DNA of 32,901 bases from an uncultured Burkholderiaceae bacterium (GCA_964568305.1 CAZMPS010000001.1:1-32901); one strand, 5' to 3'; shown: positions 1-18,222, counted from the stretch's first letter. The notes: generated from the sequence alone by a model not told the origin. Made by a program: numbers and translations.

Positions 1-651
1 GCCACTGGCACCAGCCAAAGCACGCCCACGCAAGGGTGCGTACACATGAATACTGCCATCGGCGATGACTTCTGCCCCGTTATTGACCGCTGCGGTAACA
101 ATCAAATCTGCACCACGCGCATAAATACGTTGGCCAGCACGTACGGGCGTATCAATAATCATCGTGCCTGGTGCGACTTCTTTGAGCATGGTTGTGTTAG
201 CTGTCGTGTTTTCTTGTTGCGCAGTTTCTGAAGCGGTTTCTGTCGTCCTTACTTTAGTCGCGGGTTCGTCTTCAACATCGCTGCTTTGATCTTGATCGGT
301 GTAGGCGGTTGCTGTGGTGTCAAGGCTTAACCCATTTGCCAAAATGCTGTCATGCATGCATGCTGGCGCGTTGCGTACTGCGACGGGGTTTAACTGATGT
401 GCTTTGAACAACGTAATCAGCGTTGGCCAGTCTATAGCATTGACGGCTTCTATTTCTGTCACTGTGTGCAGATCCAGTGCGCCAAGATCAATCACGGCAA
501 ATTCATGATCAAAAAAATCCGACATGCCGCCCGTCATTTTTTTTAATGACGCTTCCCATTGCACTGGGTTGGATGAATGAAGAATCGCCGAAATAGCAAC
601 AACCGTGGATATTTTGATTTCGATGGGTTTGCGATTTGAACTGGATGACAT
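1..651 (-). CDS. minC: Septum site-determining protein MinC. The start codon is in the window; the C-terminal end runs off the left edge.
   Basis: Absent from the ORF track because it is open at the window edge. Reverse-strand translation from CAT at 649-651 reads [18 protein letters not shown]... and ends ...[52 protein letters not shown]. That ending is the conserved MinC C-terminal domain pattern. Confidence 0.85.
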
Positions 652-771
652 AGAGAAAATAAAAATAGAGGCTTTGAAAGCCTGTTAAACCTGATTTGAA
701 TCTAATTTGAGCCTAATTTGGCACTAAAACGCTTAAACAGAAGCAGTAGCGCCAAAAAAGTAAGCAGTATA

Positions 772-1758
772 TTACATTACAGAAACCGCTTGAAAATCAT
801 CTTGCGCATCTTGTGCCGTTTGTAATGAGATCACTTTGGAATCCCCCAAATTGCTGGAATTGCTGGAGCATGGTTCGTCATCAAATGCAATATCACCTTG
901 CGCATTGGGAATGCCGTTTGCCTCTAAATTGGCAAAATTGAACTGATTGCGATCCATTAAATGCGAAGGTACAACAGTGGATAAAGAAGAAAAAATGCTT
1001 TCCACTCGTCCTGGAAATTGTTTTTCCCAATCGCGCATCAATTGTTTGATTTGTTTGCGCTGCAGATTCTCTTGCGAACCGCATAAATCGCAAGGAATGA
1101 TGGGAAATTGCTTGACCTGCGCATAACGCTCTGAATCTTTTTCTTTTACATACGCCATGGGGCGAATCACGATATGTTGTCCGTCATCCGATTGCAATTT
1201 GGCTGGCATACCTTTGAGTTTGCCTCCGAAGAACATATTCAGGAAAAAGGTTTCCAGAATGTCGTCTCGGTGGTGGCCTAGTGCAATTTTGGTTGCCCCG
1301 AGCTCATTGGCCACGCGATACAAAATACCGCGCCGCAAGCGTGAACAGAGTGAGCAAGTGGTTTTACCTTCAGGAATGACACGCTTGACGATGCTGTAGG
1401 TATCTTGATTTTCAATGTGAAAAGGCACACCGAGTTTGGTCAAATATGCGGGTAGAATGTCGGCCGGAAAGTTGGGCTGTTTTTGATCCAGATTGACGGC
1501 GACAATATCAAAATGAATCGGCGCCCGTGCGCGTAGCGTGAGCAAAATATCCAGCAAGGTATAGCTATCTTTGCCGCCAGACAAACAAACCATGACCTTG
1601 TCGCCCTCTTTGATCATGTCAAAATCCTGGATGGCCTGACCGACCTGGCGACATAAGCGTTTATGTAACTTGTTGTTTTCGTACTGCACTTTTTCAGCCT
1701 GCTTACTTAATTGTGCACTACATTGTTCTGTACGTTGCTCAGAGACATCAACATCCAT
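772..1758 (-). CDS. ttcA: tRNA 2-thiocytidine(32) synthetase TtcA
   Basis: PP-loop [16 protein letters not shown] and CDLCG motifs. The track start at 1827 is an upstream extension into the divergent gene. The MDVDVSEQ start (CAT 1756-1758) has an AAGGA Shine-Dalgarno about 9 nt upstream. Confidence 0.9.
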
Positions 1759-1796: not shown

Positions 1797-2975
1797 ATGA
1801 TACTACCCGAACCGAGTGAACAGGCACGCGCTGCGTCGGATGCGCTTACTTTACATATCAGCCGTGAAATTGAATCTCATGATGGGTGGGTTTCGTTTGC
1901 GCGCTTTATGGAGTGGCTGTTGTATACGCCAAAGTTGGGTTATTACAGTGGCGGTGCAAAGAAATTAGGCGAACAGGGGGATTTTACAACCGCACCAGAA
2001 ATGACGCCCTTGTTTGGTGCGACGCTGGCGCAGGTGGCGGCTAAGTTGATGGCGCAAAGCACGCCGCAATTGCTGGAGTTTGGCGCTGGCACCGGTCAAT
2101 TGGCGTATGACGTGTTGACTGAATTGGCGGCCATGAATGTGCCGGTGACGCGTTATGCGATTGTTGAATTGTCTGGCGAATTGCGTGCGCGCCAGCAAGA
2201 AAAGCTGCGTGACTTTCCTCAAGTCTGTTGGTTAGATGCCTTACCCGCTGCATTTTCTGGCGTGGTATTGGCGAATGAAGTGCTGGATGCGATGCCGGTT
2301 CATTTGGTCTGCAAGCAAAGTGAAAATACCTGGTGTGAGCAAGGCGTGGCGTGGTCGGAAGAACGTGGCTTTGTGTTTGCTCAGCGTGAATGCACTCCTG
2401 AGTTGTTACAGCAAATCGGGCAACAAATCCTGGATGCAGAGGATTTGCCAGTCGGTTATTTGACGGAAGTCCATCCGCTGGCGTGCGGTTTTATCCATAC
2501 TTTGGCCGCCATGCTGCAAGCTGGGCGAACGCAAAGTGATAGTGGTAGCGGTGGCGCGGCGATTTTGATCGATTATGGCTTTCCAGCGCATGAATACTAT
2601 TTAGCTCAGCGCTCGCAAGGAACGTTGATGTGTCATTACCGCCACCATGCGCATGCTGATCCATTTTATTTACCTGGTTTGCAGGACGTGACAGCGCACG
2701 TGGATTTCAGCGCGATGGCGCGTACAGCGCTCATGGGCGGCCTGGATGTGTTGGCGTATATGGGGCAAGCGGCGTTTTTGATTCATGCTGGCATCGGTGA
2801 TTTATTAATGCGCACGCCGGTGACGGATTCGCTGCGGTATTTGCCACAAGCGAAAGCCGTGCAGAAACTGGTATCGCCTGCTGAAATGGGTGAGTTATTC
2901 AAGGTGCTGGTGCTGGGTTTGGATGTCGAGTTACCACCCGAATTTGCGCGTGGGGATCATAGTTATAAATTGTGA
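1797..2975 (+). CDS. Class I SAM-dependent methyltransferase, MidA/NDUFAF7-like (DUF185)
   Basis: 392-aa ORF. It has [16 protein letters not shown] (SAM-binding GxGxG), [11 protein letters not shown] and ILIDYGF segments typical of the MidA family. Confidence 0.7.
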
Positions 2976-3030
2976 TGGTTGCAGTCTTGTTTTTTATTGC
3001 TCTTTTGTTTTCTCAACGTGAAGGATGATT

Positions 3031-3943
3031 ATGAAAATTGCTCAAGATGTTGTTCAATTGATAGGTAATACACCTTTGGTGCGTATTAACCGCTTAGCTA
3101 GTCGCCAAGCTGGAGTTTTATAACCCAGCTCACAGCGTAAAAGACCGGATAGGCGCCGCCATGATAGAAGCGGCGGAGCGCGCCGGTTTGATCAAAGCCG
3201 ACACGATTATCGTAGAACCCACCAGCGGTAATACTGGTATTGCGCTAGCCATGGTGTGCGCGGCACGTGGTTATCGTTGCGTGTTGGTGATGCCAGAAAC
3301 CATGAGCAAAGAACGCCGCATGTTGTTGCGTGCTTATGGTGCGGAATTGATTTTGACACCTGGTGCAGAAGGCATGCCCGGTGCGATTAAAAAAGCAGAA
3401 GAATTAGCCGCGTCCGATTCACGTTATTTTTTGCCACAGCAATTCAAAAATCTCGCCAATCCAGAGATTCATCGCAACACCACCGCAGAAGAAATTTGGC
3501 GCGACACTGACGGCAAGATTGATATTTTAGTCGCCGGTATTGGTACGGGCGGCACGATTACCGGCGTGGGTGAAGTGTTAAAAGCACGCAAACCGGATGT
3601 CCAAATTATCGCCGTAGAACCCGATGCCTCTCCCATGTTGTCATGTGGCACCAAAGGGCCACACGTCATTCAGGGTATCGGTGCCGGTTTTGTACCAGAC
3701 ATCCTGAATACCAAAATCTATGACGAAGTCGTGCGCGTCACCAATGACGATGCCTTGCAAACAGCGCGTCGATCAGCGAAGGAAGAAGGCTTATTAGTCG
3801 GCATTTCATCCGGCGCAGCATTGTGGGCTGCGATACAAGTGGCGCAAAGACCAGAAAATGCTGGCAAGTTGCTGGTGACGATTATTCCGTCATTTGGCGA
3901 GCGTTATTTGAGTACGGCCTTGTTTGCGGATTTGGCGCAATAA
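3031..3943 (+). pseudogene. cysK: Cysteine synthase A (O-acetylserine sulfhydrylase), disrupted by an out-of-frame lesion near codon 23
   Basis: Frame 1 from ATG 3031 reads [30 protein letters not shown], then TAA at 3121. A different frame is open from 3098 and reads [27 protein letters not shown]... through to ...[15 protein letters not shown] (stop at 3943). The track ORF (3161..3943) starts after the PLP-lysine motif SVKDR. Confidence 0.8.
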
Positions 3944-3955
3944 AACAATCAAACA

Positions 3956-3996
3956 TAAAAAAGCGCGGAGTGATTTGACTCACTCCGCGCTTTTGT
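3956..3996. terminator. Bidirectional rho-independent terminator between convergent cysK and pckG
   Basis: 12-bp perfect stem AGCGCGGAGTGA (3962-3973) / TCACTCCGCGCT (3980-3991) with a 6-nt loop. Flanked by an A-run upstream and TTTTGTTTG downstream. Confidence 0.8.
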
Positions 3997-4023
3997 TTGT
4001 GTTTCTGCTTTTGCTTCTGTTTT

Positions 4024-5907
4024 TTACATGTCTAGATGTTGACCGCCATTCAAACGCGATTGCAATTGCGCTTTGGTAGTCTGCAAAGCTTGTGGCAAGC
4101 GGTAGTGCAGTTTTTCAAACAATTCGCTATGCAATTTCAGCTCGGTTTCCCACGCTGCTTTGTCGATCGAGGTGATGGTGTTGAATTGTTCTTGCGTAAA
4201 TTCAATGCCATCCCATTTCAAGTCGGCAAATTGTGGTGATACGCCAAAAATGTTTTCAACGCCAGTGGTTTGGCCTTCAATGCGATCTAACATCCACTTC
4301 AACACGCGCATATTGTCGCCAAAGCCAGGCCAGACGAATTTGCCTTCAGCGTCGGTGCGGAACCAGTTGACGCAGTAGATTTTTGGCAAAGCTGCGCCAG
4401 CTTGTTGGATTTTTTCGCCGACATTCAACCAATGTTGGAAATAGTCGCTCATGTTGTAACCCATGAATGGCAACATCGCGAATGGATCGCGGCGTACTAC
4501 GCCCATTTGACCGGCAGCAGCAGCGGTGGTTTCTGAACCCATAGTCGCTGCCATGTAAACGCCTTCAACCCAGTTACGTGCTTCGGTGACGAGTGGCACG
4601 GTGGTGGAACGACGGCCGCCGAAAATAAAGGCAGAAATTGGCACGCCAGCTGGATCATCCCAAGCTGGATCGATGACTGGGTTTTGTGTTGCAGCAACAG
4701 TGAAACGCGCATTAGGATGCGCTGCTTTGCGGCCAGTTTCTTTAGCGATTTCTGGTGTCCAGTCTTTGCCTTGCCAGTCGATCAAGTGCGCTGGTGCTTC
4801 TTTGGTCAAACCTTCCCACCAAACATCGCCATCGTCGGTCAATGCAACGTTGGTGAAAATGGTGTTTTCGTTCATGGAAGCCATGCAATTGGAGTTGGTT
4901 CTGGTATTGGTGCCAGGTGCAACGCCGAAGTAACCGGCTTCTGGGTTGATTGCATACAAGCGGCCATCTTTGCCAGGCTTAATCCATGCAATATCGTCGC
5001 CGATGGTGGTGACTTTCCAACCTTCAAAACCCTTAGGTGGAATCAACATGGCGAAGTTAGTTTTGCCGCAAGCGGAAGGGAATGCAGCTGCGACGTAGTG
5101 TTTCTTACCTTCGGGGGATTCCACGCCCAAAATCAACATATGTTCAGCCAACCAGCCTTGATCGCGGCCCATGGTGGATGCAATACGCAAGGCGAAGCAT
5201 TTTTTACCTAACAATGCGTTGCCGCCGTAACCGGAGCCATAAGACCAGATTTCACGTGTTTCAGGGAAATGCACGATGTATTTGGTTGCGTTGCATGGCC
5301 AAGCGACGTCTTTTTGACCCGCTTCCAATGGTGCGCCAACTGTGTGTACGCAAGGGACAAATTCACCGTCTGTGCCCAATACGTCGTACACCGCTTTGCC
5401 CATGCGCGTCATGATGCGCATGTTGACGGCGACGTAAGGGGAGTCGGACAATTCAATTCCGATGTGGGCGATTGGTGAACCTAATGGGCCCATAGAAAAT
5501 GGCACGACATACATGGTACGACCGCGCATGCAGCCATCAAACAAGCCATTCAATGTGGTGCGCATAACAGCGGGTTCCATCCAGTGATTGGTTGGGCCAG
5601 CGTCTTCTTTTTTCTCGCTGCAAATAAAGGTGCGGTCTTCAACACGTGCAACGTCTGATGGATCGGAGCAGGCTAAATAGCTGTTTGGGCGTTTGGCATC
5701 GTTGAGCTTTTTCATGGTGCCACTTTCGACCATCAAAGCGCACAAACGATCGTATTCGCTTTGTGATCCATCACACCAATAGATACTGTCTGGTTTGGCC
5801 AGGGCAGCGACTTCTGCGACCCAGTTGATTAATTTTTGATGTTTGACATAAGCTGGAATGTTCAGTGTTGCAACATCAGCCTTATCAGTCTTAACAGGTT
5901 GATTCAT
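4024..5907 (-). CDS. pckG: Phosphoenolpyruvate carboxykinase (GTP)
   Basis: About 627 aa with the GTP-PEPCK signatures FPSACGKTN and [12 protein letters not shown]. The MNQPVKTDK start at 5907 is preferred because GGAG lies 7 nt upstream. The track start at 5919 adds 4 codons. Confidence 0.9.
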
Positions 5908-6300
5908 AGAGTGCTCCAATGCTAGTAAAGAAAATTTGACTTGTCCGGCACGATGATTGCCAACTTACGGCTACTTAGAATTGTTTTTATGCTAGCGCGA
6001 TTGATGAGTGGCAGTGGCTACGGCGGTTTTTCTGCAAGAATTCTGTAATCGAATCCGAGATGATAGCAGGTCTTTGGATGCTCCATCTAGACCTTGTCGT
6101 GAATAAAACCAGCTTCTATATTCCATCTATATCTTATCTATGCCTGATCTGTACTGTACTCGAGGCTTTATAATTTACTACCGATGATGATTTTTGTTGT
6201 GGAACCGCCAATTGTTAATTTCTCATTATTAATTTACTATCTTTTGATGTTTTCGTGAGACGGAGCGAGGAAATAGTCGCTTTTATTTGCTGTTTTTGTA

Positions 6301-7218
6301 ATGTTAAAGGAAAAATGTATGTTTCGAATCTCTTCAGGAGTGGCTAAAGCTGCCTTTGTTAAAGGCTCCATAATGTTGGGCCGGGGCATGTCGGTTGGTT
6401 CCAGCCCAAGTCAAACTTTTAGTCGGCTGACTTCCCCTATTGCGCCAGGTACGAGCAATATTGGGCAAGTTGCTGGAAAAAATTCTTTGGCGTTTGGCGC
6501 AGTGCAACCAATTGCACAGTTATCTCTACAACGACCTATATCTGACCAAATATCAAACGATTCTGTCGATTTTGAGCATCCTCATATACAAATGGCAGTG
6601 CTCGAAAAACTGATTTCCGGACAAAAAATAAATCAGCGTGTCATTGATGGCATCCAAAATTGTAATGCACGCTTGTGGGTTTATGGGGATCAAGAAAAGA
6701 TCAAGGAGCAATTATTGGAATTGTTATTGCAACAACCGCTCACATCGAATGCGGCTATGACCTTGCGGTTTTTAAACGATCTTTTAGAGGACGACCAAAA
6801 CAGCCTCGCAACAGCACTGCTTCGTGAGAATTCTTCCTATATTCATGTTGAGTCAGCAGCATTGAAAACAGTGCTTGGCAGTCTCCATATATTTGATAAC
6901 CCTGAGGTCAAGGCAAGGCTGATAGAAAGTGCTACGGCGGAGCTTGATAAGGAGAGTCCTGATCCAGAAATGCTGGATGTCATCATGCAAAATGTCGATG
7001 ATTTGATCGATAATCCAAGAGCGCAACGAGCTGTTGCATGGACTATTTGGGAAGGGGGGGTCGGCGATGATCGCATACAGTTTGCTGCAGTCGGTAAACA
7101 ATTTACCGATCAGAAGGCCAGATTAATCATTGCTAAGGCACTTGAAATAGAATCTTTTCACATGAGTAATCTCGATGCCATAAGGGCGCGTCAATCTCTG
7201 CGCCAATTGCTTGGTTAG
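6301..7218 (+). CDS. Hypothetical protein with a Ser/Gly/Pro/Gln-rich N-terminus followed by a helical-repeat-like body
   Basis: Long ORF in an AT-rich region, with no signal peptide or recognisable catalytic motif. The alternative start MFRISSG at 6319 has AAGGA upstream and is probably the real start. Confidence 0.55.
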   Translation: MLKEKCMFRISSGVAKAAFVKGSIMLGRGMSVGSSPSQTFSRLTSPIAPGTSNIGQVAGKNSLAFGAVQPIAQLSLQRPISDQISNDSVDFEHPHIQMAVLEKLISGQKINQRVIDGIQNCNARLWVYGDQEKIKEQLLELLLQQPLTSNAAMTLRFLNDLLEDDQNSLATALLRENSSYIHVESAALKTVLGSLHIFDNPEVKARLIESATAELDKESPDPEMLDVIMQNVDDLIDNPRAQRAVAWTIWEGGVGDDRIQFAAVGKQFTDQKARLIIAKALEIESFHMSNLDAIRARQSLRQLLG

Positions 7219-7564
7219 TGCAATAGCTGTATCTCATTGAGGACTGGCACACCGTTTTTCCATACAGCCATACGTGGCACGCCGGGTTTGGTCGCTTCAT
7301 GGTCTGTTTGGGAAAACTGTGCGTGATAGATGGCGCCTTTGATTTTTCCACCGTCGTGACTGATGTTTGCCTGCGTAATTGCCGCGCAATCAAATCGGAA
7401 CAGGAAACAGATTTTGCATGTTGAGGTGTTTGGAATGAGGAAGCAATAGGAACTTATTTAAAACATTTTCAAAAAATGAAAGGGCTGAAGTAAATGCTAT
7501 TTATTAACTCTGTCAACAGCGATACAAAATTGATACACCCCGTTCATTTCTGAATACGTATTTT

Positions 7565-8206
<642 letters not shown>

Positions 8207-8560
8207 TTAGGTACACAGCTAATGCCAATCCGACGAAAAATACAGCAAGAAACGCAGTGCCCCTACTTGCTTCATGTCCGATTAGCTTGTTTTTCATACT
8301 GTCTCAAAAAGTTGGAATTAACAGAGGTCTTACACCTTAGTTTGGCTGATTATTGTAGATGACTTTGCGCACTCATGGCCACGAGCGATCGACTGAAAAT
8401 AGATGATAGTGGACATTATGATAACCGCACGTTTATATACGAAACGTCGTGGTGCATTGACTATGCGAATTGGTGGTGATTTTGGGAAGAGAATTGATGG
8501 CTACTTTCGTGTGCTACTGAACTGAATGGTTATTTTGACGCGAATATTCAAGTTATACCA

Positions 8561-8779
8561 TCAGCGCTTGAAGCGACTAATAAGTTTTCGCTGTGGCGAG
8601 ACGCATGCATGGCTTGCGCAGTGGGAAATTGTTAGTGCTGCATTAATGGCTAGGCCATAAGAGTGATACCCAATTAATTGTCTTACCCACTCTCGCAACT
8701 GTTTAATTTTGTTGTTGGCTGTATCGACCATGCTGTTGCAATACATAAAAAAGTATCTTATATGGGTCATTTTATTCAT
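8561..8779 (-). pseudogene. Possible C-terminal relic of a transposase (ISL3-like NNKIK motif)
   Basis: The 72-aa ORF contains NSMVDTANNKIKQLR...GYHSYG. This resembles the conserved (T/S)NxxxExxNxKIKxxKR..GY C-terminal motif of ISL3-type transposases. The match is weak and the ORF is isolated. Confidence 0.25.
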
Positions 8780-8864
8780 ATTATAATTAACATTGTCCCA
8801 TTAAAAGATACTAAAACTACGCCTATCTTTAATGCCCCAAATACAATGACAATGGAGTACTCGC

Positions 8865-10145
8865 ATGGAGTGTCACTTTCAAATCTTTGTTGATGATCAT
8901 TGGATTGATTGTGCCACCCTCGCGGCACGAGGAAGCGGTAATGCTGGGAGCATTTTTGAATATGACCTGGATTATGCGTTCAGCGACATACTGGAACCTG
9001 TTTCACTGCGGTTCCCCGTCGATGCGATACATCATATAAGCCCTCATTGGCCAGCCTTTTTTTATGATTTGATTCCTCAAGGAAGTGGCCGCAAATTTTT
9101 GCTTGGACAACTTGGATTGCCAGATGGCCCAGGTGCGGATTTTTCTCTTGTTCGTGCGGGGGCGTTCAATCCAATTGGCCGTGTGCGGGTTGTGGAGGCG
9201 GTCGACTATTTCAACCAACATGTCCAGCGTCATGACGTTCGTGGCATGGATCAGGGTTTTACTTTGGCGGAAATGATGGAGCGTGGGGAAGATTTTCACG
9301 AACGCATGATGATACATAGCATGTTGGCAGCAGGAACAACTGGGGTTCAGGGCGCGGCTCCGAAGTATTTGCTCACCAAAGATGGACAAGGTTTATGGCA
9401 TGTAGACGGTGCTTTGCCTGATGACAAGGCCGCATCACACTTCATTGTGAAACGGCCACGTGGTACTTCAGAAGCAGACAAAAAAGTCTTACGGAATGAA
9501 GCCGCTTATATGGATGTGGCCGCATCCATGGGCATTCGTACACACGGCAAGCTTGCGCACCATGATGGATTTTTGTTTATTCCTAGATTTGATCGTCAGC
9601 TTGAAAACGGAAGAGTGATCCGCCTGCATCAGGAAAGCGCAGCATCCTTGGCTGGGTTGATCGGCTTCGATGCCAGGCCAAGCCAATTTGCGCTTTTATC
9701 CGCGCTCAGAACATTTGTCACAGACAAAACTGCCGAAACGATCGAATTTCTGAAACGTGACGTGTTGAATCTGGCGATGCGTAATACGGACAATCATGCG
9801 CGTAATACCGCCGTGCAGAAGATTGGGCAAATTGTTCGCTTAACCCCACTGTTTGATTTTGCGCCGATGTATTTGGATCCAGAAGGCATTTCACGCACAG
9901 CGCGTTGGTATCATCCCGTCACAAAAAAAGAGCTGACCGAGTGGCGTGATGTCATCGCAACACTTGAATTGGAAAAGGATGAAGCCCATCACATTACGTC
10001 CGCATTGCAAGCATTTGGGGAGCAACTACATGCGTTGACGCATCACATGCGGCAGGCGGGTGTCGATGAGGACATCGTCAATTTTGTAGGGCCGCATATC
10101 GAAGAGCAAATTCGACAGTTGCGTTCGATAGGAGAGATCAAATGA
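8865..10145 (+). CDS. HipA-family Ser/Thr kinase (putative toxin), module 1
   Basis: 426 aa. N-terminal HipA-coupling-like segment (FFYDLIPQGSGRKFLLGQLG). Gly-rich nucleotide loop GVQGAAPKYLL, plus IPRFDR. Catalytic loop RNTDNHARNTAV (DxHxRN variant of DxHxKN) and Mg-binding TPLFDFAPM. GGAG lies 7 nt upstream of the ATG. Confidence 0.85.
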   Translation: MECHFQIFVDDHWIDCATLAARGSGNAGSIFEYDLDYAFSDILEPVSLRFPVDAIHHISPHWPAFFYDLIPQGSGRKFLLGQLGLPDGPGADFSLVRAGAFNPIGRVRVVEAVDYFNQHVQRHDVRGMDQGFTLAEMMERGEDFHERMMIHSMLAAGTTGVQGAAPKYLLTKDGQGLWHVDGALPDDKAASHFIVKRPRGTSEADKKVLRNEAAYMDVAASMGIRTHGKLAHHDGFLFIPRFDRQLENGRVIRLHQESAASLAGLIGFDARPSQFALLSALRTFVTDKTAETIEFLKRDVLNLAMRNTDNHARNTAVQKIGQIVRLTPLFDFAPMYLDPEGISRTARWYHPVTKKELTEWRDVIATLELEKDEAHHITSALQAFGEQLHALTHHMRQAGVDEDIVNFVGPHIEEQIRQLRSIGEIK

Positions 10146-10555
10146 CATTGCGCAAAAAACCACTATCCCCATCGGATAAAGAAGCCGCTAAGCAGTTGCG
10201 AGCGCAGCTAAATGACGCCATTAATCGCGGTGAGTTAAGCATTCAAGATGCAGTGAAAAAAATGCGCAAGATATCTCGCCTGACGCAACCTGAGTTTGCC
10301 CATCACCGCGGCGTGAGTGCCAAAGTCATCAAGGAAATCGAGCGTGGTGTTGGGAATCCAACCGTGAATACGCTGAATCGAATCGGCGCGTTTTTTGGTT
10401 TGGAGGTGGCATTTGTGCGTTCCGAGCGATTGCGTGGTTTTGATGGTCAAATGAGTCAAGCGGGTTTGGCTGCATCGACTTCAGGTGCGCGTTCACCGAT
10501 AGAGGATTTGCGTCGGCTGGTAGATGAATTGGAAGCTGCGCAGAGAGGGCTGTAA
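10142..10555 (+). CDS. XRE-family helix-turn-helix protein (putative antitoxin/regulator) encoded downstream of kinase 1
   Basis: 137 aa. The central HTH is LTQPEFAHHRGVSAKVIKEIERGVGNPTVNTLNRIGAFFGLEV, with N- and C-terminal extensions of about 40 aa each. The start overlaps the kinase stop as ATGA (10142-10145). Confidence 0.8.
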   Translation: MTLRKKPLSPSDKEAAKQLRAQLNDAINRGELSIQDAVKKMRKISRLTQPEFAHHRGVSAKVIKEIERGVGNPTVNTLNRIGAFFGLEVAFVRSERLRGFDGQMSQAGLAASTSGARSPIEDLRRLVDELEAAQRGL

Positions 10556-10579
10556 ATTAATTTCTGTATATTTGTGTAT

Positions 10580-10601
10580 CACTGAGTAAATTTACTCAGT
10601 G
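10580..10601. repeat. Perfect 22-bp palindrome between convergent genes (hairpin terminator or dimeric-HTH operator)
   Basis: CACTGAGTAAATTTACTCAGTG equals its own reverse complement. It lies between the stop at 10555 (+) and the stop at 10627 (-). No U-tract follows directly on either strand. Confidence 0.7.
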
Positions 10602-10626
10602 GCCTACATTTATTTGTATTCATTAC

Positions 10627-11973
10627 TCACCCCAACCGCCCAATTTTGCTACTAGCCGCTTCAACATGCCGCTGCAACTCCGTGACGCAAGGTGCAAATC
10701 GCTGGCTGAATTCTGTTGAATCTATGATGCGAGTCAAAAACACACGTGCCAGTTCTTCTGCGCGGCGCCAGGTTTCGTTAGGCACGCTGGCGTGAATGTT
10801 GGCCTCTAACAGTGTGTCAGGCCGCTCGCCGCTACTACGGGGGGCGAAGGCCATTGGTGTCATGTCATACGCTGGGGCAATGTGATAAGGGCGTCCCTGT
10901 TCGGAGATGAAGGACAAGTTGCCGCTGTGCATGTCGGAGTTGCCGATCAGGGTGCCAAACGCCCATAGCAAGTTGGCGCTTTGCGCTGCTTCTGGCGTGA
11001 TTTGGCCGTCAGTCGCAAGACGGCGAGTGATGATAGGCCAGCTGGCTGTGCCTGAGCCGACGAATTCGGCATCTAGCGCTGCTAGTGAGATCAACGCACG
11101 CCGGCCTAGATCACCCACGCGGTCAAAACGTTCGACTTCCAGAAAACGTTGGTTGCCATGGTTGACTATGTGTGTGCTGGCAGCAGAGATGCCAGCATCG
11201 CGCAGTGTGCCTAGCGCCAGATGTTCAGCCAGCAGCAAATCACGCCAGCGTTCGCTCACGGGGCTTTCTTCCAGCGTGCTGAATTTCACAATCACATGCC
11301 GTGCGCCTGTTGGTGTCATGGCAAAAGCGGTGAATTTCGGCTGTTCGCCACCTGCGGATGATCCGGGTTTCTCGCCACTAGAGGTTGCTAGCGCCAGACT
11401 GGCATATTGCACGGCTTTTTGCTCTTCCGCGATGGGTTCTGCGGGCGTTGCTGCCAGAAAACGATCTCGTGCCATATCGCCAAGCAGCAGATTACCCACC
11501 ACATCATGACCATGCACCAGCAAAGCTCGCAGTGCGTGGCTATCGTTCCAATCCTTGAGCCCCGACGGCAGCCCAAGTTCCGCACCATAACGGGCAGCGT
11601 ATGCCCGCCCAAGATATCCCTGTGGCCGCATATCAAACAACCACCACGGCAGGCCTTGGCTATGCAAGGTCACGCCATCTTCTTGCTGCATGACAAACCC
11701 TTCCGGGCATACCGGTACCAATGTGCCTAAGCGTTTAATTCGACCTTCTGCATCAACCCGATAAATAGCAAAATCTGAGAACCCACGCGCGCTATCCTGC
11801 AACGCATAGTGAATAGATCGCGCTGCCCCAATCCGAATGATGTCATCCCCCAACTCAGCCAACGCACGCGCCATCGTCGGCTGGCTGACATTGATCTTCT
11901 CAGCCAGCTGCCGAGCGGACAATGGCCCACGAGCGAGGTACATGCGGATGGTGTCTATACGAGGGAGTGACAT
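10627..11973 (-). CDS. yjjJ: YjjJ/HipH-like protein: N-terminal HTH domain fused to a HipA-family kinase
   Basis: 448 aa. N-terminus LARGPLSARQLAEKINVSQPTMARALAELGDDIIRIG (HTH). Then WWLFDMRPQGYLGR, Gly-rich loop SSAGGEQPKFTAF, VERFDR, catalytic loop IGNSDMHSGNLSF and APAYDMTPM. Size and layout match E. coli YjjJ (443 aa). Confidence 0.8.
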   Translation of the reverse strand: MSLPRIDTIRMYLARGPLSARQLAEKINVSQPTMARALAELGDDIIRIGAARSIHYALQDSARGFSDFAIYRVDAEGRIKRLGTLVPVCPEGFVMQQEDGVTLHSQGLPWWLFDMRPQGYLGRAYAARYGAELGLPSGLKDWNDSHALRALLVHGHDVVGNLLLGDMARDRFLAATPAEPIAEEQKAVQYASLALATSSGEKPGSSAGGEQPKFTAFAMTPTGARHVIVKFSTLEESPVSERWRDLLLAEHLALGTLRDAGISAASTHIVNHGNQRFLEVERFDRVGDLGRRALISLAALDAEFVGSGTASWPIITRRLATDGQITPEAAQSANLLWAFGTLIGNSDMHSGNLSFISEQGRPYHIAPAYDMTPMAFAPRSSGERPDTLLEANIHASVPNETWRRAEELARVFLTRIIDSTEFSQRFAPCVTELQRHVEAASSKIGRLG

Positions 11974-11987
11974 GTTAGGTTAGTTTG

Positions 11988-12083
11988 TGAATAAATGTTT
12001 GAATATATTTATGAATAATTTTATGAATAGATAAATGAATTATATTATGAATATATTTGTGAATATATTTATGAATGGATATT
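11988..12083. repeat. Eight tandem, exactly phased 12-bp direct repeats (consensus TGAATAtATtTa)
   Basis: TGAAT starts at 11988, 12000, 12012, 12024, 12036, 12048, 12060 and 12072. Units 2 and 7 are identical (TGAATATATTTA) and unit 6 differs from them by 1 nt. Units 1-7 fill the gap between hipA (stop 12069-12071) and the yjjJ-like start (11973). Unit 8 encodes the last four hipA codons (NIHS). Confidence 0.95.
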
Positions 12084-13310
12084 GTAGGAAAAAAGACGAT
12101 CCTGCAACAGTTCGTGCAACTCCGGCGTCAACATCGGTGTGATTTCCACGAAAGCGTCTTTGATGTGTTGATACGTGTCTTGGAGTTCCTGCTCGGCTTG
12201 CTCCTTTGTCTTGATCCCAAAATATCGATGGTCAGCCAGAAGCGCGTTTCCACTCACGTCGGTTTGCCCTGCAGAAACCTGCATGGTGAGCTTCTTGGGA
12301 TGTTCATCAGGATTCGGTACCACGTCGAATGCTGGCGATAGACGCCACCGGCGTTCGTCATGCTGGTAAACAACTGCATGATTGCGTGGATGGTCATCAT
12401 CGTTACCGACGATGGCATTAAAAATCATGCGACGAAATAGCTCTAATTGATCCTCCGCCGGCGCACCAATCTGCTTTAACACCTCAGCCAAGCGTGGATA
12501 GCTGGCGCCCTCGCTATCGTTTTTTGACAAGAATGGATAGTGAATTTGTAGCAGCGAAGCGCAACTGATCGTCATCATGCGTTGATTGCCGCGCCGATCA
12601 AATCGCTTGACCCGAACAACGCTACGCCCAACAGACATCGGATGATGATGGGTTTCTGCAAAATTCATCCCAGCTTTGCGGCCCCACAATTGGGTTGCGT
12701 GCTCAAGAAGTGCAAGATCCACGGTGTCGGTATGCAAGCCGGGTTTAACAAGCCAAAAAGTGTCGCCATCTTGCACCGTCGCTTTGGGTCTGGCGCCACC
12801 CATGCTGGGCGTGGCAAATAATCGTTTGCGCAAGGCTGGATGCACAGCGGGTTTTGATTCAGTCAATGCAGTCAGCTCAGCAACCAAGTCATCTACCCGA
12901 TTTAATTTGGGACTCGCAAGGTGAGCGACGCTGGCTTTTTTGGAAGTGCCAATCGCCAATGCGCCCCAACGATCACCATTGCCAGCTTTGATGAGATAGT
13001 CCAACGCGGTCGATTTTTCCGACAACCCCTCTTTTTTCCTCAGCAGCATTTGCCCCCAGGCATCTGGACCCGCGTCGCGCAATACGTCGAATAATCCCCC
13101 ATATCGTCGTGCGATATGCACCTCGCCCTTGATGAGCGGAAGATTGACAGGATCAATCGCCCATTTCAGCCCAGCGTCGAAGTAGCTCGGCGCATACACG
13201 AACTCGCCGATGTCGCGCATATGTTGATAACGCCCCACCACAACCCACTCGCCATTGTCTGGCCTTTGTAGATAGACATACAGGTCCTGAACCCGATTAG
13301 AAATAGTCAT
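12069..13310 (-). CDS. hipA: HipA-family Ser/Thr kinase toxin, module 3 (canonical hipBA)
   Basis: MTISNRVQDLYVYL start at 13310; the track start at 13403 is an extension into hipB. Motifs are DAGPDAWGQMLL, Gly-rich loop SMGGARPKATV, VKRFDR, catalytic loop GNDDDHPRNHAV and SPAFDVVPN. Confidence 0.85.
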   Translation of the reverse strand: MTISNRVQDLYVYLQRPDNGEWVVVGRYQHMRDIGEFVYAPSYFDAGLKWAIDPVNLPLIKGEVHIARRYGGLFDVLRDAGPDAWGQMLLRKKEGLSEKSTALDYLIKAGNGDRWGALAIGTSKKASVAHLASPKLNRVDDLVAELTALTESKPAVHPALRKRLFATPSMGGARPKATVQDGDTFWLVKPGLHTDTVDLALLEHATQLWGRKAGMNFAETHHHPMSVGRSVVRVKRFDRRGNQRMMTISCASLLQIHYPFLSKNDSEGASYPRLAEVLKQIGAPAEDQLELFRRMIFNAIVGNDDDHPRNHAVVYQHDERRWRLSPAFDVVPNPDEHPKKLTMQVSAGQTDVSGNALLADHRYFGIKTKEQAEQELQDTYQHIKDAFVEITPMLTPELHELLQDRLFSYNIHS

Positions 13311-13626
13311 CGTCCATACTCCTATCCCTATTTCCACTTGCACGCGGCGCAGCCGATTGCATTTCCCATAAATGCCCCTCCAAACGCGGCGCGGCATGAT
13401 CAAGCAAACCTAGAACATTCAGCGCAGCCAGGTACAAAGACGCAGCAGCGGCAGTATCGCCATTCTCAAGACGCCGCAACGTTGGACGCGAAATACCCAA
13501 ACGACCACACAAATCTTCCGCCGTCATACGCAACGACACACGCTGCTTACGTATCGTTGCCCCCCACGTCTGCAGTCTTTCCACTACGCTGCTGGGGATA
13601 TCACCTGCGGTTCTTTTTTTCTTCAT
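13297..13626 (-). CDS. hipB: HipB-like XRE-family HTH antitoxin
   Basis: 109 aa with MTAEDLCGRLGISRPTLRRLENGD (HTH). It lies immediately upstream of hipA on the same strand and overlaps it by 14 nt (ATGACTATTTCTAA). Confidence 0.8.
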   Translation of the reverse strand: MKKKRTAGDIPSSVVERLQTWGATIRKQRVSLRMTAEDLCGRLGISRPTLRRLENGDTAAAASLYLAALNVLGLLDHAAPRLEGHLWEMQSAAPRASGNRDRSMDDDYF

Positions 13627-13736
13627 ATGTGTATTTTTATGGAATTTATTATTTACATTGTATGATGTTATGGAAAATTTATGTTACTGTTTTAATGAAT
13701 AACTATAAGTGATGGACGTATTTTTTAGGAGCGTTT

Positions 13737-13967
13737 ATGCGCAAAAAAATGACTATTACATTGGATGAAGCTGTTTATGACGGACTTTATAGAGTTGTTG
13801 GGAAACGCAAAATCAGTCAATTCATCGAAAATTTAGTCCGCTCTTATGTCGTCAAAAATGATTTATTAGAAAGTTATCAGGCGATGGCAAAAGATACCGA
13901 ACGCGAGCGCGAGGCATTGGAATGGAGTAATGACTTGATTGGGGATGTAACCGATGCTGCGCGGTGA
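13737..13967 (+). CDS. Ribbon-helix-helix (CopG/Arc-like) antitoxin paired with the MazF/PemK-family toxin
   Basis: 76 aa. MTITLDEAVYDGLYRVVGKRKISQFIENLV has the RHH strand-helix-helix pattern, followed by an acidic C-terminal half. AGGAG lies 6 nt upstream of ATG 13737. Confidence 0.7.
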   Translation: MRKKMTITLDEAVYDGLYRVVGKRKISQFIENLVRSYVVKNDLLESYQAMAKDTEREREALEWSNDLIGDVTDAAR

Positions 13968-14276
13968 GGTATGGTGGGTAGTTTTGATCCGGCAATGGGT
14001 GGGGAAATTCAAAAAACTCGCCCTGCCGTTATCATCAGCAACAACGCGGCAAACACTACCTTAAACAGAATTCAAGTTATTCCATTAACCAGTAATACTG
14101 GACGACTGTACGTCAGTGAGGCTGTTGTTAGCGTAAAAGGAAAATCCAGCAAAGCAATGGCTGATCAACTCACTACAGTGGCTAAAGAACGGCTCAAGGG
14201 TAAGCTGGGGGCAATTTCAGCGCAGGATATTGAGGCGGTAGAGCGGACCATTAGGATTCAGCTTGGGATGGAGTGA
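13954..14276 (+). pseudogene. mazF: MazF/PemK-family endoribonuclease toxin, frameshifted near codon 10. The longest intact ORF is 13971..14276.
   Basis: ATG 13954 overlaps the antitoxin stop and reads MLRGEVWWV, the canonical MazF first strand. The family body FDPAMGGEIQKTRPAVIISNN...IPLTSN continues in another frame (track ORF from 13971). The two frames differ by one nucleotide at the T-run 13982-13985. Confidence 0.75.
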
Positions 14277-14354
14277 TCGGGACAAGCAAAATATTTACAT
14301 TGAATGTATCTACTTCGTCTTAATAAGTAGTTTTATTGCTCTGTTTTACCCACA

Positions 14355-14404
14355 AAAACATAAAACGCCCCGCAAATTTCATCAACTTGCAGGGCGTTTT
14401 GTCC
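14355..14404. terminator. Rho-independent terminator downstream of ssb (usable in both directions)
   Basis: Stem AAAACGCCCCGCAA (14362-14375) / TTGCAGGGCGTTTT (14387-14400) with one mismatch. T/A runs flank it on both sides. Confidence 0.75.
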
Positions 14405-14427
14405 TTCACAGACGTTTTTATTGCGTT

Positions 14428-14943
14428 TTAAAACGGAATATCATCATCCATATCCGAAAAGTTCGGTGCTGGTTTTGGTGCAGGCGCTGGGCGTGCAGGC
14501 GCGTTGTTTTGATTATTGTTGTTGCTGTAATTATTGTTCTGATTGTTATTCTGATACGGCGCAGCGCTGCCGTAGCCGTCGTCCATTGGTGCGCTGCCCA
14601 TTCCTTGGCGGCTGCCTAGCATTTGCATGGTGTCGGCGCGGATGTCGGTTGCGTATTTTTCTATGCCGTCTTTGTCGGTGTATTTACGGGTGCGTAGACT
14701 GCCTTCTATGTAGACTTGCGAGCCTTTTTTGAGGTATTGGCCGGCGATTTCGGCTAATTTGCCGAAGAAGGTGATGCGGTGCCATTCGGTTTGTTCTTTC
14801 TTTTCACCGGTGTTTTTGTCTTTCCAGTTGTCGGTGGTGGCGACGGTGATGCTTGCCATGGCATCGCCGCTGGGCATGTAGCGCATTTCTGGGTCGCGGC
14901 CTAGGTTGCCGACGATGATTACTTTATTGACTGATGCCATCAC
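14428..14943 (-). CDS. ssb: Single-stranded DNA-binding protein
   Basis: N-terminal OB fold [20 protein letters not shown], a disordered linker, and the canonical acidic tail DMDDDIPF. Confidence 0.95.
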
Positions 14944-15093
14944 GCACTCCTTCGTTTTCTATTGTCTGTTTTCCGTTGCCGGGGCGATTCTACGACGATC
15001 GCCAAAAGCCGCTATAGTAGCAGGTTAGCTTGTTTGTCGGCTTGTTTATCCGCAACAGTTTATTCATTCCTCATTGAAAGCAGAAAGCAGTAC

Positions 15094-18222
<3,129 letters not shown>

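Follow-up and report, generated by a model that had tools for sequence, protein, structure and literature searches.

We analysed a stretch of DNA of 32,901 nucleotides (nt) from an uncultured Burkholderiaceae bacterium (GCA_964568305.1, CAZMPS010000001.1:1-32901), hereafter called the window, in which an initial annotation had recognised three HipA-family kinase genes packed into 4.8 kb, each with a differently arranged helix-turn-helix (HTH) partner. The list of open reading frames (ORFs) and all of the quoted motifs agree with this description, and the gene content of the Hip cluster is real rather than a chance pattern. The genes of the cluster and the repeat array preceding hipH are given below, with positions counted from the first nucleotide of the window.

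8865-10145 (+): K1, HipA-family Ser/Thr kinase, full length, 426 amino acids; leads a reversed-order module (kinase, then HTH)
10142-10555 (+): H1, XRE-type HTH protein, 137 amino acids, putative antitoxin/repressor of K1; 4-nt ATGA overlap with K1
10627-11973 (-): K2, HipH/YjjJ, HipA-family kinase with a fused N-terminal winged HTH, 448 amino acids
11984-12076 (-): eight tandem 12-nt repeats (ATTCAy-N6), spanning the 95 nt from the K3 stop codon to the hipH start; candidate HipH operator/leader
12069-13310 (-): K3, HipA-family kinase, full length, 413 amino acids; canonical-order hipBA, outside the E. coli HipA clade
13297-13626 (-): H3, HipB-like XRE HTH protein, 109 amino acids, putative antitoxin/repressor; 14-nt overlap with K3

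All three kinases scored far above the cut-off of the Pfam HipA_C profile (PF07804; 30.5 bits), at 100.7 bits for K1, 88.0 bits for K2 and 141.3 bits for K3. K1 additionally reached 21.5 bits with Couple_hipA, slightly under the Pfam cut-off, and the Pfam search of K3 gave no Couple_hipA match. The translations contain the Gly-rich loops TTGVQGAAPK (K1), SSAGGEQPK (K2) and PSMGGARPK (K3), the RFDR segments IPRFDR, VERFDR and VKRFDR, the catalytic loops DNHARN, DMHSGN and DDHPRN, and the Mg-binding motifs FDFAP, YDMTP and FDVVP, respectively. The machine-called K3 ORF reaches a TTG at 13403, and the length of 413 amino acids counts from the ATG at 13310, which was taken as the start because two homologues (L010 and L011) begin there with the same 14-nt overlap.

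The three HTH arrangements also proved to be different, with H1 downstream of its kinase, an HTH fused to K2 and H3 upstream of its kinase. H1 matched Pfam HTH_3 at 23.8 bits (cut-off, 23) and NCBIfam couple_hipB/Y4mF at 45 bits, under the cut-off; H3 matched HTH_31 (34.9 bits) and HTH_3 (33.4 bits), each over the Pfam cut-off. K2 is a member of the NCBIfam YjjJ/HipH equivalog NF007297, which it matches over residues 7-447 of 448 (593.6 bits; cut-off, 401). Residues 11-60 of K2 gave sub-threshold Pfam matches to MarR, HTH_11, ArsR and HTH_24, and its N-terminus is colinear with E. coli HipH in the alignment, which identifies a fused N-terminal HTH. The cluster is not of the HipBST type, as the kinases are 413-448 amino acids long and no HipS-like ORF is found in the ORF list. 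The hipH gene has close neighbours on both sides: the hipBA pair lies 95 nt upstream in the same orientation, and the convergent hipAB pair lies 71 nt downstream. Its guanine-cytosine (GC) content, judged by eye in the initial annotation to be the highest of the three, is 56.5%, compared with 49.1% for K1, 51.6% for K3 and 46.2% for the window.

The kinases are deeply divergent from one another. Pairwise BLASTP among K1, K2 and K3 gave partial alignments at 23-31% identity. A neighbour-joining tree was constructed from 388 alignment columns, in which representatives of the homologue sets were combined with HipA and HipH of E. coli and with three sequences of clade I listed by Gerdes et al. (2021, Table S1). 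Four groups emerged, namely clade I, HipH (including K2) and the families of K1 and K3, each with 100/100 bootstrap support; identity between groups was 20-22%, and K1 and K3 were 20-21% identical to clade I. Neither K1 nor K3 falls in HipA clade I, which includes E. coli K-12 HipA and Caulobacter HipA1/2 with the targets GltX/LysS/TrpS. Each kinase has relatives at 57-90% identity in other genomic contexts. The suggestion of separate acquisition rather than local duplication is thus upheld by the approximately 20% identity, the distinct clades, these relatives elsewhere and the occurrence of K1-H1 alone beside ssb-uvrA in other genomes. Local duplication was ruled out by the pairwise BLASTP and the tree.

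Each module belongs to a catalogued type. In the survey of Gerdes, Baerentsen and Brodersen (mBio 2021, PMC8262856), hipBA accounted for 989 of 1,239 modules, single-gene hipH with a fused HTH for 101, and the reversed order for 20 (hipAB, 8; hipEB, 12). K2 resembles HipH/YjjJ of E. coli K-12 (clade X; Gerdes et al. 2021; Gratani et al. 2023, PMC9948734) in its fused N-terminal HTH and full-length equivalog match, its SS-AGGEQPK Gly-rich loop, its DMHxGN catalytic loop, its YDxxP Mg motif and the ATTCA repeats at 12-nt spacing upstream of the start codon, but the two proteins are 39% identical. Module 3 shares the overlapping upstream hipB with canonical hipBA (E. coli HipA/HipB and Shewanella oneidensis HipAB, PDB 4PU3-5), and K3 shares with it the HipA fold (template modelling (TM) score of 0.69-0.72 against 4PU4/3DNT), the Ser150-equivalent Ser and the catalytic residues; K3 differs from clade I in having DDHPRN instead of DAHAKN, in its approximately 20% identity and in forming its own clade. 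In the clade I rows of Table S1 (Gerdes et al. 2021), DAHAKN occurs 143 times, and DNHARN and DDHPRN occur nowhere. Module 1 shares the kinase-first order, the overlapping HTH gene and N-subdomain-1 with the reversed-order hipEB (clade IX) and hipAB subclades (VII, and V or VI depending on the passage; PMC8262856). K1 is likened to these modules by gene order, in a comparison that included clade I sequences alone from the catalogue and does not separate HipE from a hipAB subclade. Reversed-order modules are rare in that survey, whereas the K1 family comprises at least 120 sequence clusters at 56% identity or more, mostly from Burkholderiales and metagenomes. The searchable literature on studied reversed-order Hip modules yielded nothing beyond Gerdes et al. 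(2021), and no experimentally studied member of the K1 reversed-order or K3 non-clade-I hipBA family is known. All three layouts were described before, and the non-canonical catalytic loops likewise belong to the known features of the respective families; the unusual part is the tight clustering of three deep Hip lineages in 4.8 kb, kept in a sister lineage and set within a defence hot spot. The finding of the initial annotation is real and correctly interpreted, but less novel than had been suggested.

Active sites were compared in an alignment of K1, K2 and K3 with E. coli K-12 HipA and HipH (NC_000913), using HipA numbering. G153 and K157 of the Gly-rich loop, the ATP-binding K181, R235-F236-D237, the catalytic D309, H311 and N314, and the Mg-binding D332 are invariant in all three kinases. 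The residues for ATP binding, catalysis and Mg binding are thus all kept, and activity as a Ser/Thr kinase is predicted for K1, K2 and K3 alike. The canonical Lys of DxHxKN (Lys313) is indeed missing from all three, as the initial annotation had pointed out, but the replacement is typical of each family and not a defect. A census of the best 120 homologues per kinase showed DNHARN in 114 and DNHGRN in 6 members of the K1 family, DDHPRN in 104 of 120 members of the K3 family (the remainder mostly another DDHxRN variant) and DMH(S/N/G)GN in 113 of 120 members of the HipH family, with DMHAGN in E. coli HipH. A degenerate kinase resulting from the lost catalytic-loop Lys was ruled out, the substitution being the family norm.

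A Ser or Thr in front of each Gly-rich loop had been proposed as the counterpart of HipA Ser150. This holds for K2 and K3, in which the Ser aligns exactly and is conserved across both families, but not for K1, in which the aligned residue is Gly. K1 carries Thr-Thr one to two residues upstream of the Ser150 column; variants in its family are TT, SL, GT and TL, with at least one Ser or Thr always present at these two positions. The candidate autophosphorylation sites are thus T158/T159 in K1, S205/S206 in K2 and S169 in K3. The AlphaFold model of K1 (predicted local distance difference test (pLDDT), 77; predicted TM score (pTM), 0.83) gave TM scores of 0.62-0.70 against full-length HipA, including 0.68-0.70 against E. 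coli HipA, and the model of K3 (pLDDT 79.5, pTM 0.82) gave 0.69-0.72 against Shewanella and E. coli HipA. The short HipT kinases reached only about 0.46 with either model. K1 and K3 therefore carry N-subdomain-1, as their models fit full-length HipA better than HipT.

The modules were found separately in other genomes. The K1-H1 order is kept in all nine homologous loci examined (L001-L009) and also in L012. K1-H1 adjoins ssb-uvrA in Glaciimonas GG7 (L001-L003) and in a metagenome lineage (L004-L006) without hipH, K3/H3 or mazEF, and in Janthinobacterium (L007-L009) it lies at another genome position, away from ssb-uvrA. These three Janthinobacterium loci were the only ones returned when the genome collection was scanned with K1, and they contain no additional Hip genes. 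The K3-type hipBA occurs near leuA in L010 (86% identity) and on a TrwB/TrwC conjugative element of Glaciimonas CA11.2 (L011), with the 14-nt overlap retained and no neighbouring hipH in either case. HipH is 70-76% identical in Sulfuritalea, Nitrosomonas, Methylomonas and Collimonas. In 80 other hipH loci, all metagenomic and together covering 506 kb of flank, no second Hip kinase was detected, and one weak, distant match to H3 was the only hit. Taken together, these data indicate that the modules were acquired separately and that the triple cluster is rare, since each module is found alone elsewhere and hipH is solitary in 80/80 loci. An exact-sequence look-up of K1 matched no record. Homologues of K1 and K3 come chiefly from Oxalobacteraceae and other Burkholderiales, and UvrA of the window shares 87% identity with its Glaciimonas sp. 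GG7 counterpart, which points to an Oxalobacteraceae-like betaproteobacterium.

The K1-type HTH partner exists in two lengths: a short form of 135-138 amino acids (window 10142-10555, L004 11270-11677 and L012 8585-9001) and a long form of 243-251 amino acids with an extra C-terminal region of about 110 amino acids (Glaciimonas GG7, L001 11290-12021, and the P0002 contig). In L004, the ssb flank beside the K1-H1 homologue (2222-9838) holds an Abi_2 gene together with a restriction-modification system of type I, in keeping with a defence hot spot at this position.

The order of the cluster is conserved in a related metagenomic locus, and the cluster is thus not accidental. Two metagenome contigs, L012 (1-13165) and L013 (1-4466), from SRR32919007 and SRR32919018, present orf305, K1, H1, hipH, a K3 remnant and H3 in the same order as the window at 81-86% nucleotide identity; amino acid identity to the window is 88% for K1, 90% for hipH and 87% for H3. 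The ratio of non-synonymous to synonymous substitution (dN/dS) between the window and this sister lineage is 0.09 for K1, 0.14 for H1, 0.11 for HipH and 0.07 for H3. The shared order and these dN/dS values indicate that the cluster predates the split of the two lineages and is under purifying selection. In the sister locus, K3 stops after 29 codons and is replaced by a 1.45-kb segment with a 404-amino-acid gene on the opposite strand, and hipB3 (the H3 gene) is intact in L013 despite this deletion. L012 also carries a 5.4-kb insertion between H1 and hipH that encodes two anti-phage proteins, PDC-S01 (519 bits in PADLOC) and the NACHT protein EruA (1009 bits in NCBIfam; cut-off, 1000). At the position of the IS21 remnant of the window, L012 has a VapBC-like pair and a second gene paralogous to the one of 404 amino acids.

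The two L012 paralogues (308-1522 (-) and 11153-12394 (-); 404 and 413 amino acids, 55% identical) flank the Hip cluster and show weak TauD/VioC-like dioxygenase similarity; neither occurs in the window, and one sits at the place of K3. The gene orf305 (window 6301-7218 (+), 305 amino acids) has a counterpart with 70% amino acid identity at the edge of L012 and no match in Pfam, NCBIfam or PADLOC.

The conserved repeat array in front of hipH is the most promising lead from this locus. TRF identified the array with a period of 12 and 7.8 copies. The pattern ATTCA-N7-ATTCA occurs seven times in the hipH leader and nowhere else in the window, against an expected number of 0.21, and the stop codon of K3 falls within the first ATTCA repeat. 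Boxes with a consensus close to tCTATTCAy, exactly 12 nt apart, lie close to the hipH start in E. coli K-12, Sulfuritalea and L012 (positions 4735-4768 for the E. coli K-12 hipH leader, L016, and approximately 5486-5520 in L014), and boxes also occur upstream of hipH in L017-L096. At least two in-register boxes were present within 100 nt upstream of hipH in 70 of 78 metagenomic loci and at least three boxes in 40 of 78. Such boxes were found in 2 of 10,798 control windows, and none was found on the opposite strand of the same hipH upstream stretches. The usual copy number is three, as in the E. coli K-12 leader, and the largest elsewhere is seven, compared with eight in the window; HipH elsewhere is also solitary, whereas K2 has hipBA and hipAB neighbours.

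In 46 of 66 hipH leaders, the array is led by a -10-like hexamer, and the window leader has the hexamer TACAAT immediately ahead of the first repeat; a Shine-Dalgarno-like motif was seen in 1 of 66 leaders. From their sequence and placement, the ATTCA boxes are likely an operator for the N-terminal HTH of HipH itself. The searchable literature gave no description of an ATTCA array or of a HipH/YjjJ operator. The operator hypothesis would also cover hipH of E. coli K-12, whose regulation and "missing antitoxin" remain unexplained. ATTCA boxes were sought at the K1 and H3 promoters and were absent there, and no operator motif was shared. Upstream of K1, inverted half-sites AGTATCTT/AAGATACT common to the window and L012 are a candidate element, and upstream of H3 a CCAT-N11-ATG(G) motif is common to the window and L010. 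Nothing suggests shared operators, because these candidate motifs differ from the hipH boxes.

The Hip cluster lies beside ssb and uvrA, together with the following features.

7565-8200 (-): N-terminally truncated IstB_IS21 helper ATPase; insertion-sequence remnant bounding the island on the left
13737-13967 (+): mazE-like gene, the antitoxin gene of a type II toxin-antitoxin pair that is divergent from hipB3
13971-14276 (+): mazF/PemK, the toxin gene of the same pair
14428-14943 (-): ssb (SSB, 137.7 bits), conserved core gene anchoring the island
approximately 15094-17967: uvrA, divergent from ssb

The IstB remnant matched Pfam IstB_IS21 at 246.9 bits (profile positions 45-237 of 238) and NCBIfam IS21-like IstB at 359.7 bits, and the ORF list holds no adjacent IstA ORF. 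The mazF gene matched PemK_toxin (72.6 bits, Pfam) and MazF (41 bits, NCBIfam), and the mazE-like gene matched a MazE-family antitoxin at 25 bits, under the NCBIfam cut-off. The intergenic region between hipB3 and mazE is AT-rich and 110 nt long. The fast turnover of defence genes, the IS21 IstB remnant and the mazEF pair mark the locus as a toxin-antitoxin/defence island beside ssb. As in defence islands at hot spots, several toxin modules and an insertion-sequence remnant lie between core genes, and relatives carry a restriction-modification system, Abi_2, PDC-S01 and a NACHT EruA gene at homologous positions. A HipA-family kinase system, HipAD/DS-6, has been validated in phage defence (PMC13092281), but its partner is DUF3037/DUF1829, whereas the partners of the window kinases are HTH proteins.

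On this basis, the region of 8.9-14.3 kb is probably a toxin-antitoxin/defence island in the variable region by ssb-uvrA that consists of four independently acquired, self-regulating type II modules, namely, the reversed-order K1-H1, the single-gene hipH/yjjJ, the canonical H3-K3 hipBA and mazEF. By analogy with the characterised families, a kinase freed from its partner would phosphorylate an essential translation-related target and thereby cause growth arrest. Each of H1 and H3 would bind the cognate kinase, neutralise it and also repress the promoter of its own module. For HipH, the 12-nt-periodic ATTCA repeats that make up its leader would mediate self-repression, and the kinase would be restrained by its own HTH domain, possibly together with a trans factor. 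The modules would probably serve in phage defence by abortive infection and/or stabilise the island. The toxicity, cognate neutralisation, autoregulation, kinase targets and defence role expected here are those of the families to which the genes belong.

Several points weigh against this explanation. Toxicity, neutralisation and defence have no experimental support in the K1 or K3 families, and Gerdes et al. (2021, PMC8262856) enter "None" under analysed members for every clade except I, III and X. No PADLOC model matched K1, and K2 and K3 gave only weak PDC-M03A matches. The K3 module is dispensable, given its loss in the sister lineage. The strict independence of the modules is further questioned by E. 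coli HipB, which neutralises YjjJ in trans (PMC9948734), and by the course of hipBA3 and hipH, which lie on the same strand without a predicted terminator between them; read-through from hipBA3 into hipH, and hence some coupling, may occur.

The latter observations lead to the cross-regulation that the initial annotation had raised. Cross-talk among the modules is possible. A cross-wired network, in which H3 acts as trans antitoxin or co-repressor of HipH, hipBA3 transcription feeds hipH and the kinases possibly phosphorylate each other, is nevertheless rather unlikely. In E. coli, HipB rescues the toxicity of YjjJ/HipH, HipA7 phosphorylates YjjJ, and over-production of YjjJ changes HipA activity (PMC9948734), and in the window hipBA3 abuts the hipH leader. 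The sister lineage has kept hipB3 intact, at a dN/dS of 0.07, after losing K3, but this low value averages the whole divergence and may mostly predate the loss. Furthermore, the solitary state of hipH at 80/80 other loci shows no general need for a neighbouring hipB, K3-type hipBA homologues occur without an adjoining hipH, the K1 and H3 promoters lack the ATTCA array, and the 404-amino-acid opposite-strand gene lies between hipB3 and hipH in L012/L013. We consider it similarly improbable that the cluster is a functional unit, as opposed to a chance assembly, with HipB3 acting in trans on HipH, and that the hipH leader is an undescribed cross-family operator whose eight copies alter autoregulation, although such a unit would explain both the retention of hipB3 after the hipA3 deletion and the running of hipBA3 into the hipH leader.

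It is also unlikely, and slightly more so, that at least one kinase serves in regulation rather than as a toxin, or is a passenger that is inert and decaying, and that the cluster arose as mobile DNA built up neutrally at a permissive hot spot. The IS21 remnant, the fast gene turnover and the loss of K3 in the sister lineage without apparent consequence would agree with this, as would E. coli HipH, which phosphorylates RpmE and CsrA and gives no antibiotic tolerance (PMC9948734). However, the active-site residues are all intact, dN/dS values of 0.07-0.14 indicate selection on K1, H1, HipH and H3, the overlapping kinase-HTH pairs are kept across many genomes, and moderate over-production of YjjJ is toxic in E. 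coli (PMC9948734). That the kinases are recent tandem-duplication paralogues with later partner shuffling is barely conceivable, as only their adjacency and common HipA_C domain speak for it, against the 20-22% identity, the separate fully supported clades, each with many 55-90% identical sequences from other genomes, and the different GC contents and N-terminal architectures.

Read as an island of independently acquired modules, the locus documents an ssb-adjacent hot spot with fast turnover of toxin-antitoxin and anti-phage genes. It combines three Hip kinases of very different types with three HTH partners in one genetic background and is a compact setting for testing whether neutralisation is cognate or crosses between modules, something so far seen in E. 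coli only between distant loci.

Scans for sigma-70 promoter and terminator consensus sequences gave no excess over shuffled sequence, and an Rfam scan of window positions 7000-15000 returned nothing. Between the convergent H1 and hipH genes lies a perfect 22-nt palindrome, CACTGAGTAAATTTACTCAGTG, at 10580-10601. The RNA fold of the surrounding interval (10556-10626) has a free energy of -17.5 kcal/mol (z = -4.3), and the palindrome is not followed by a T-tract. This interval is the site of the 5.4-kb insertion in the sister locus L012. Judging by its sequence and position, the palindrome may act as a terminator in both directions or mark a site of recombination or insertion.

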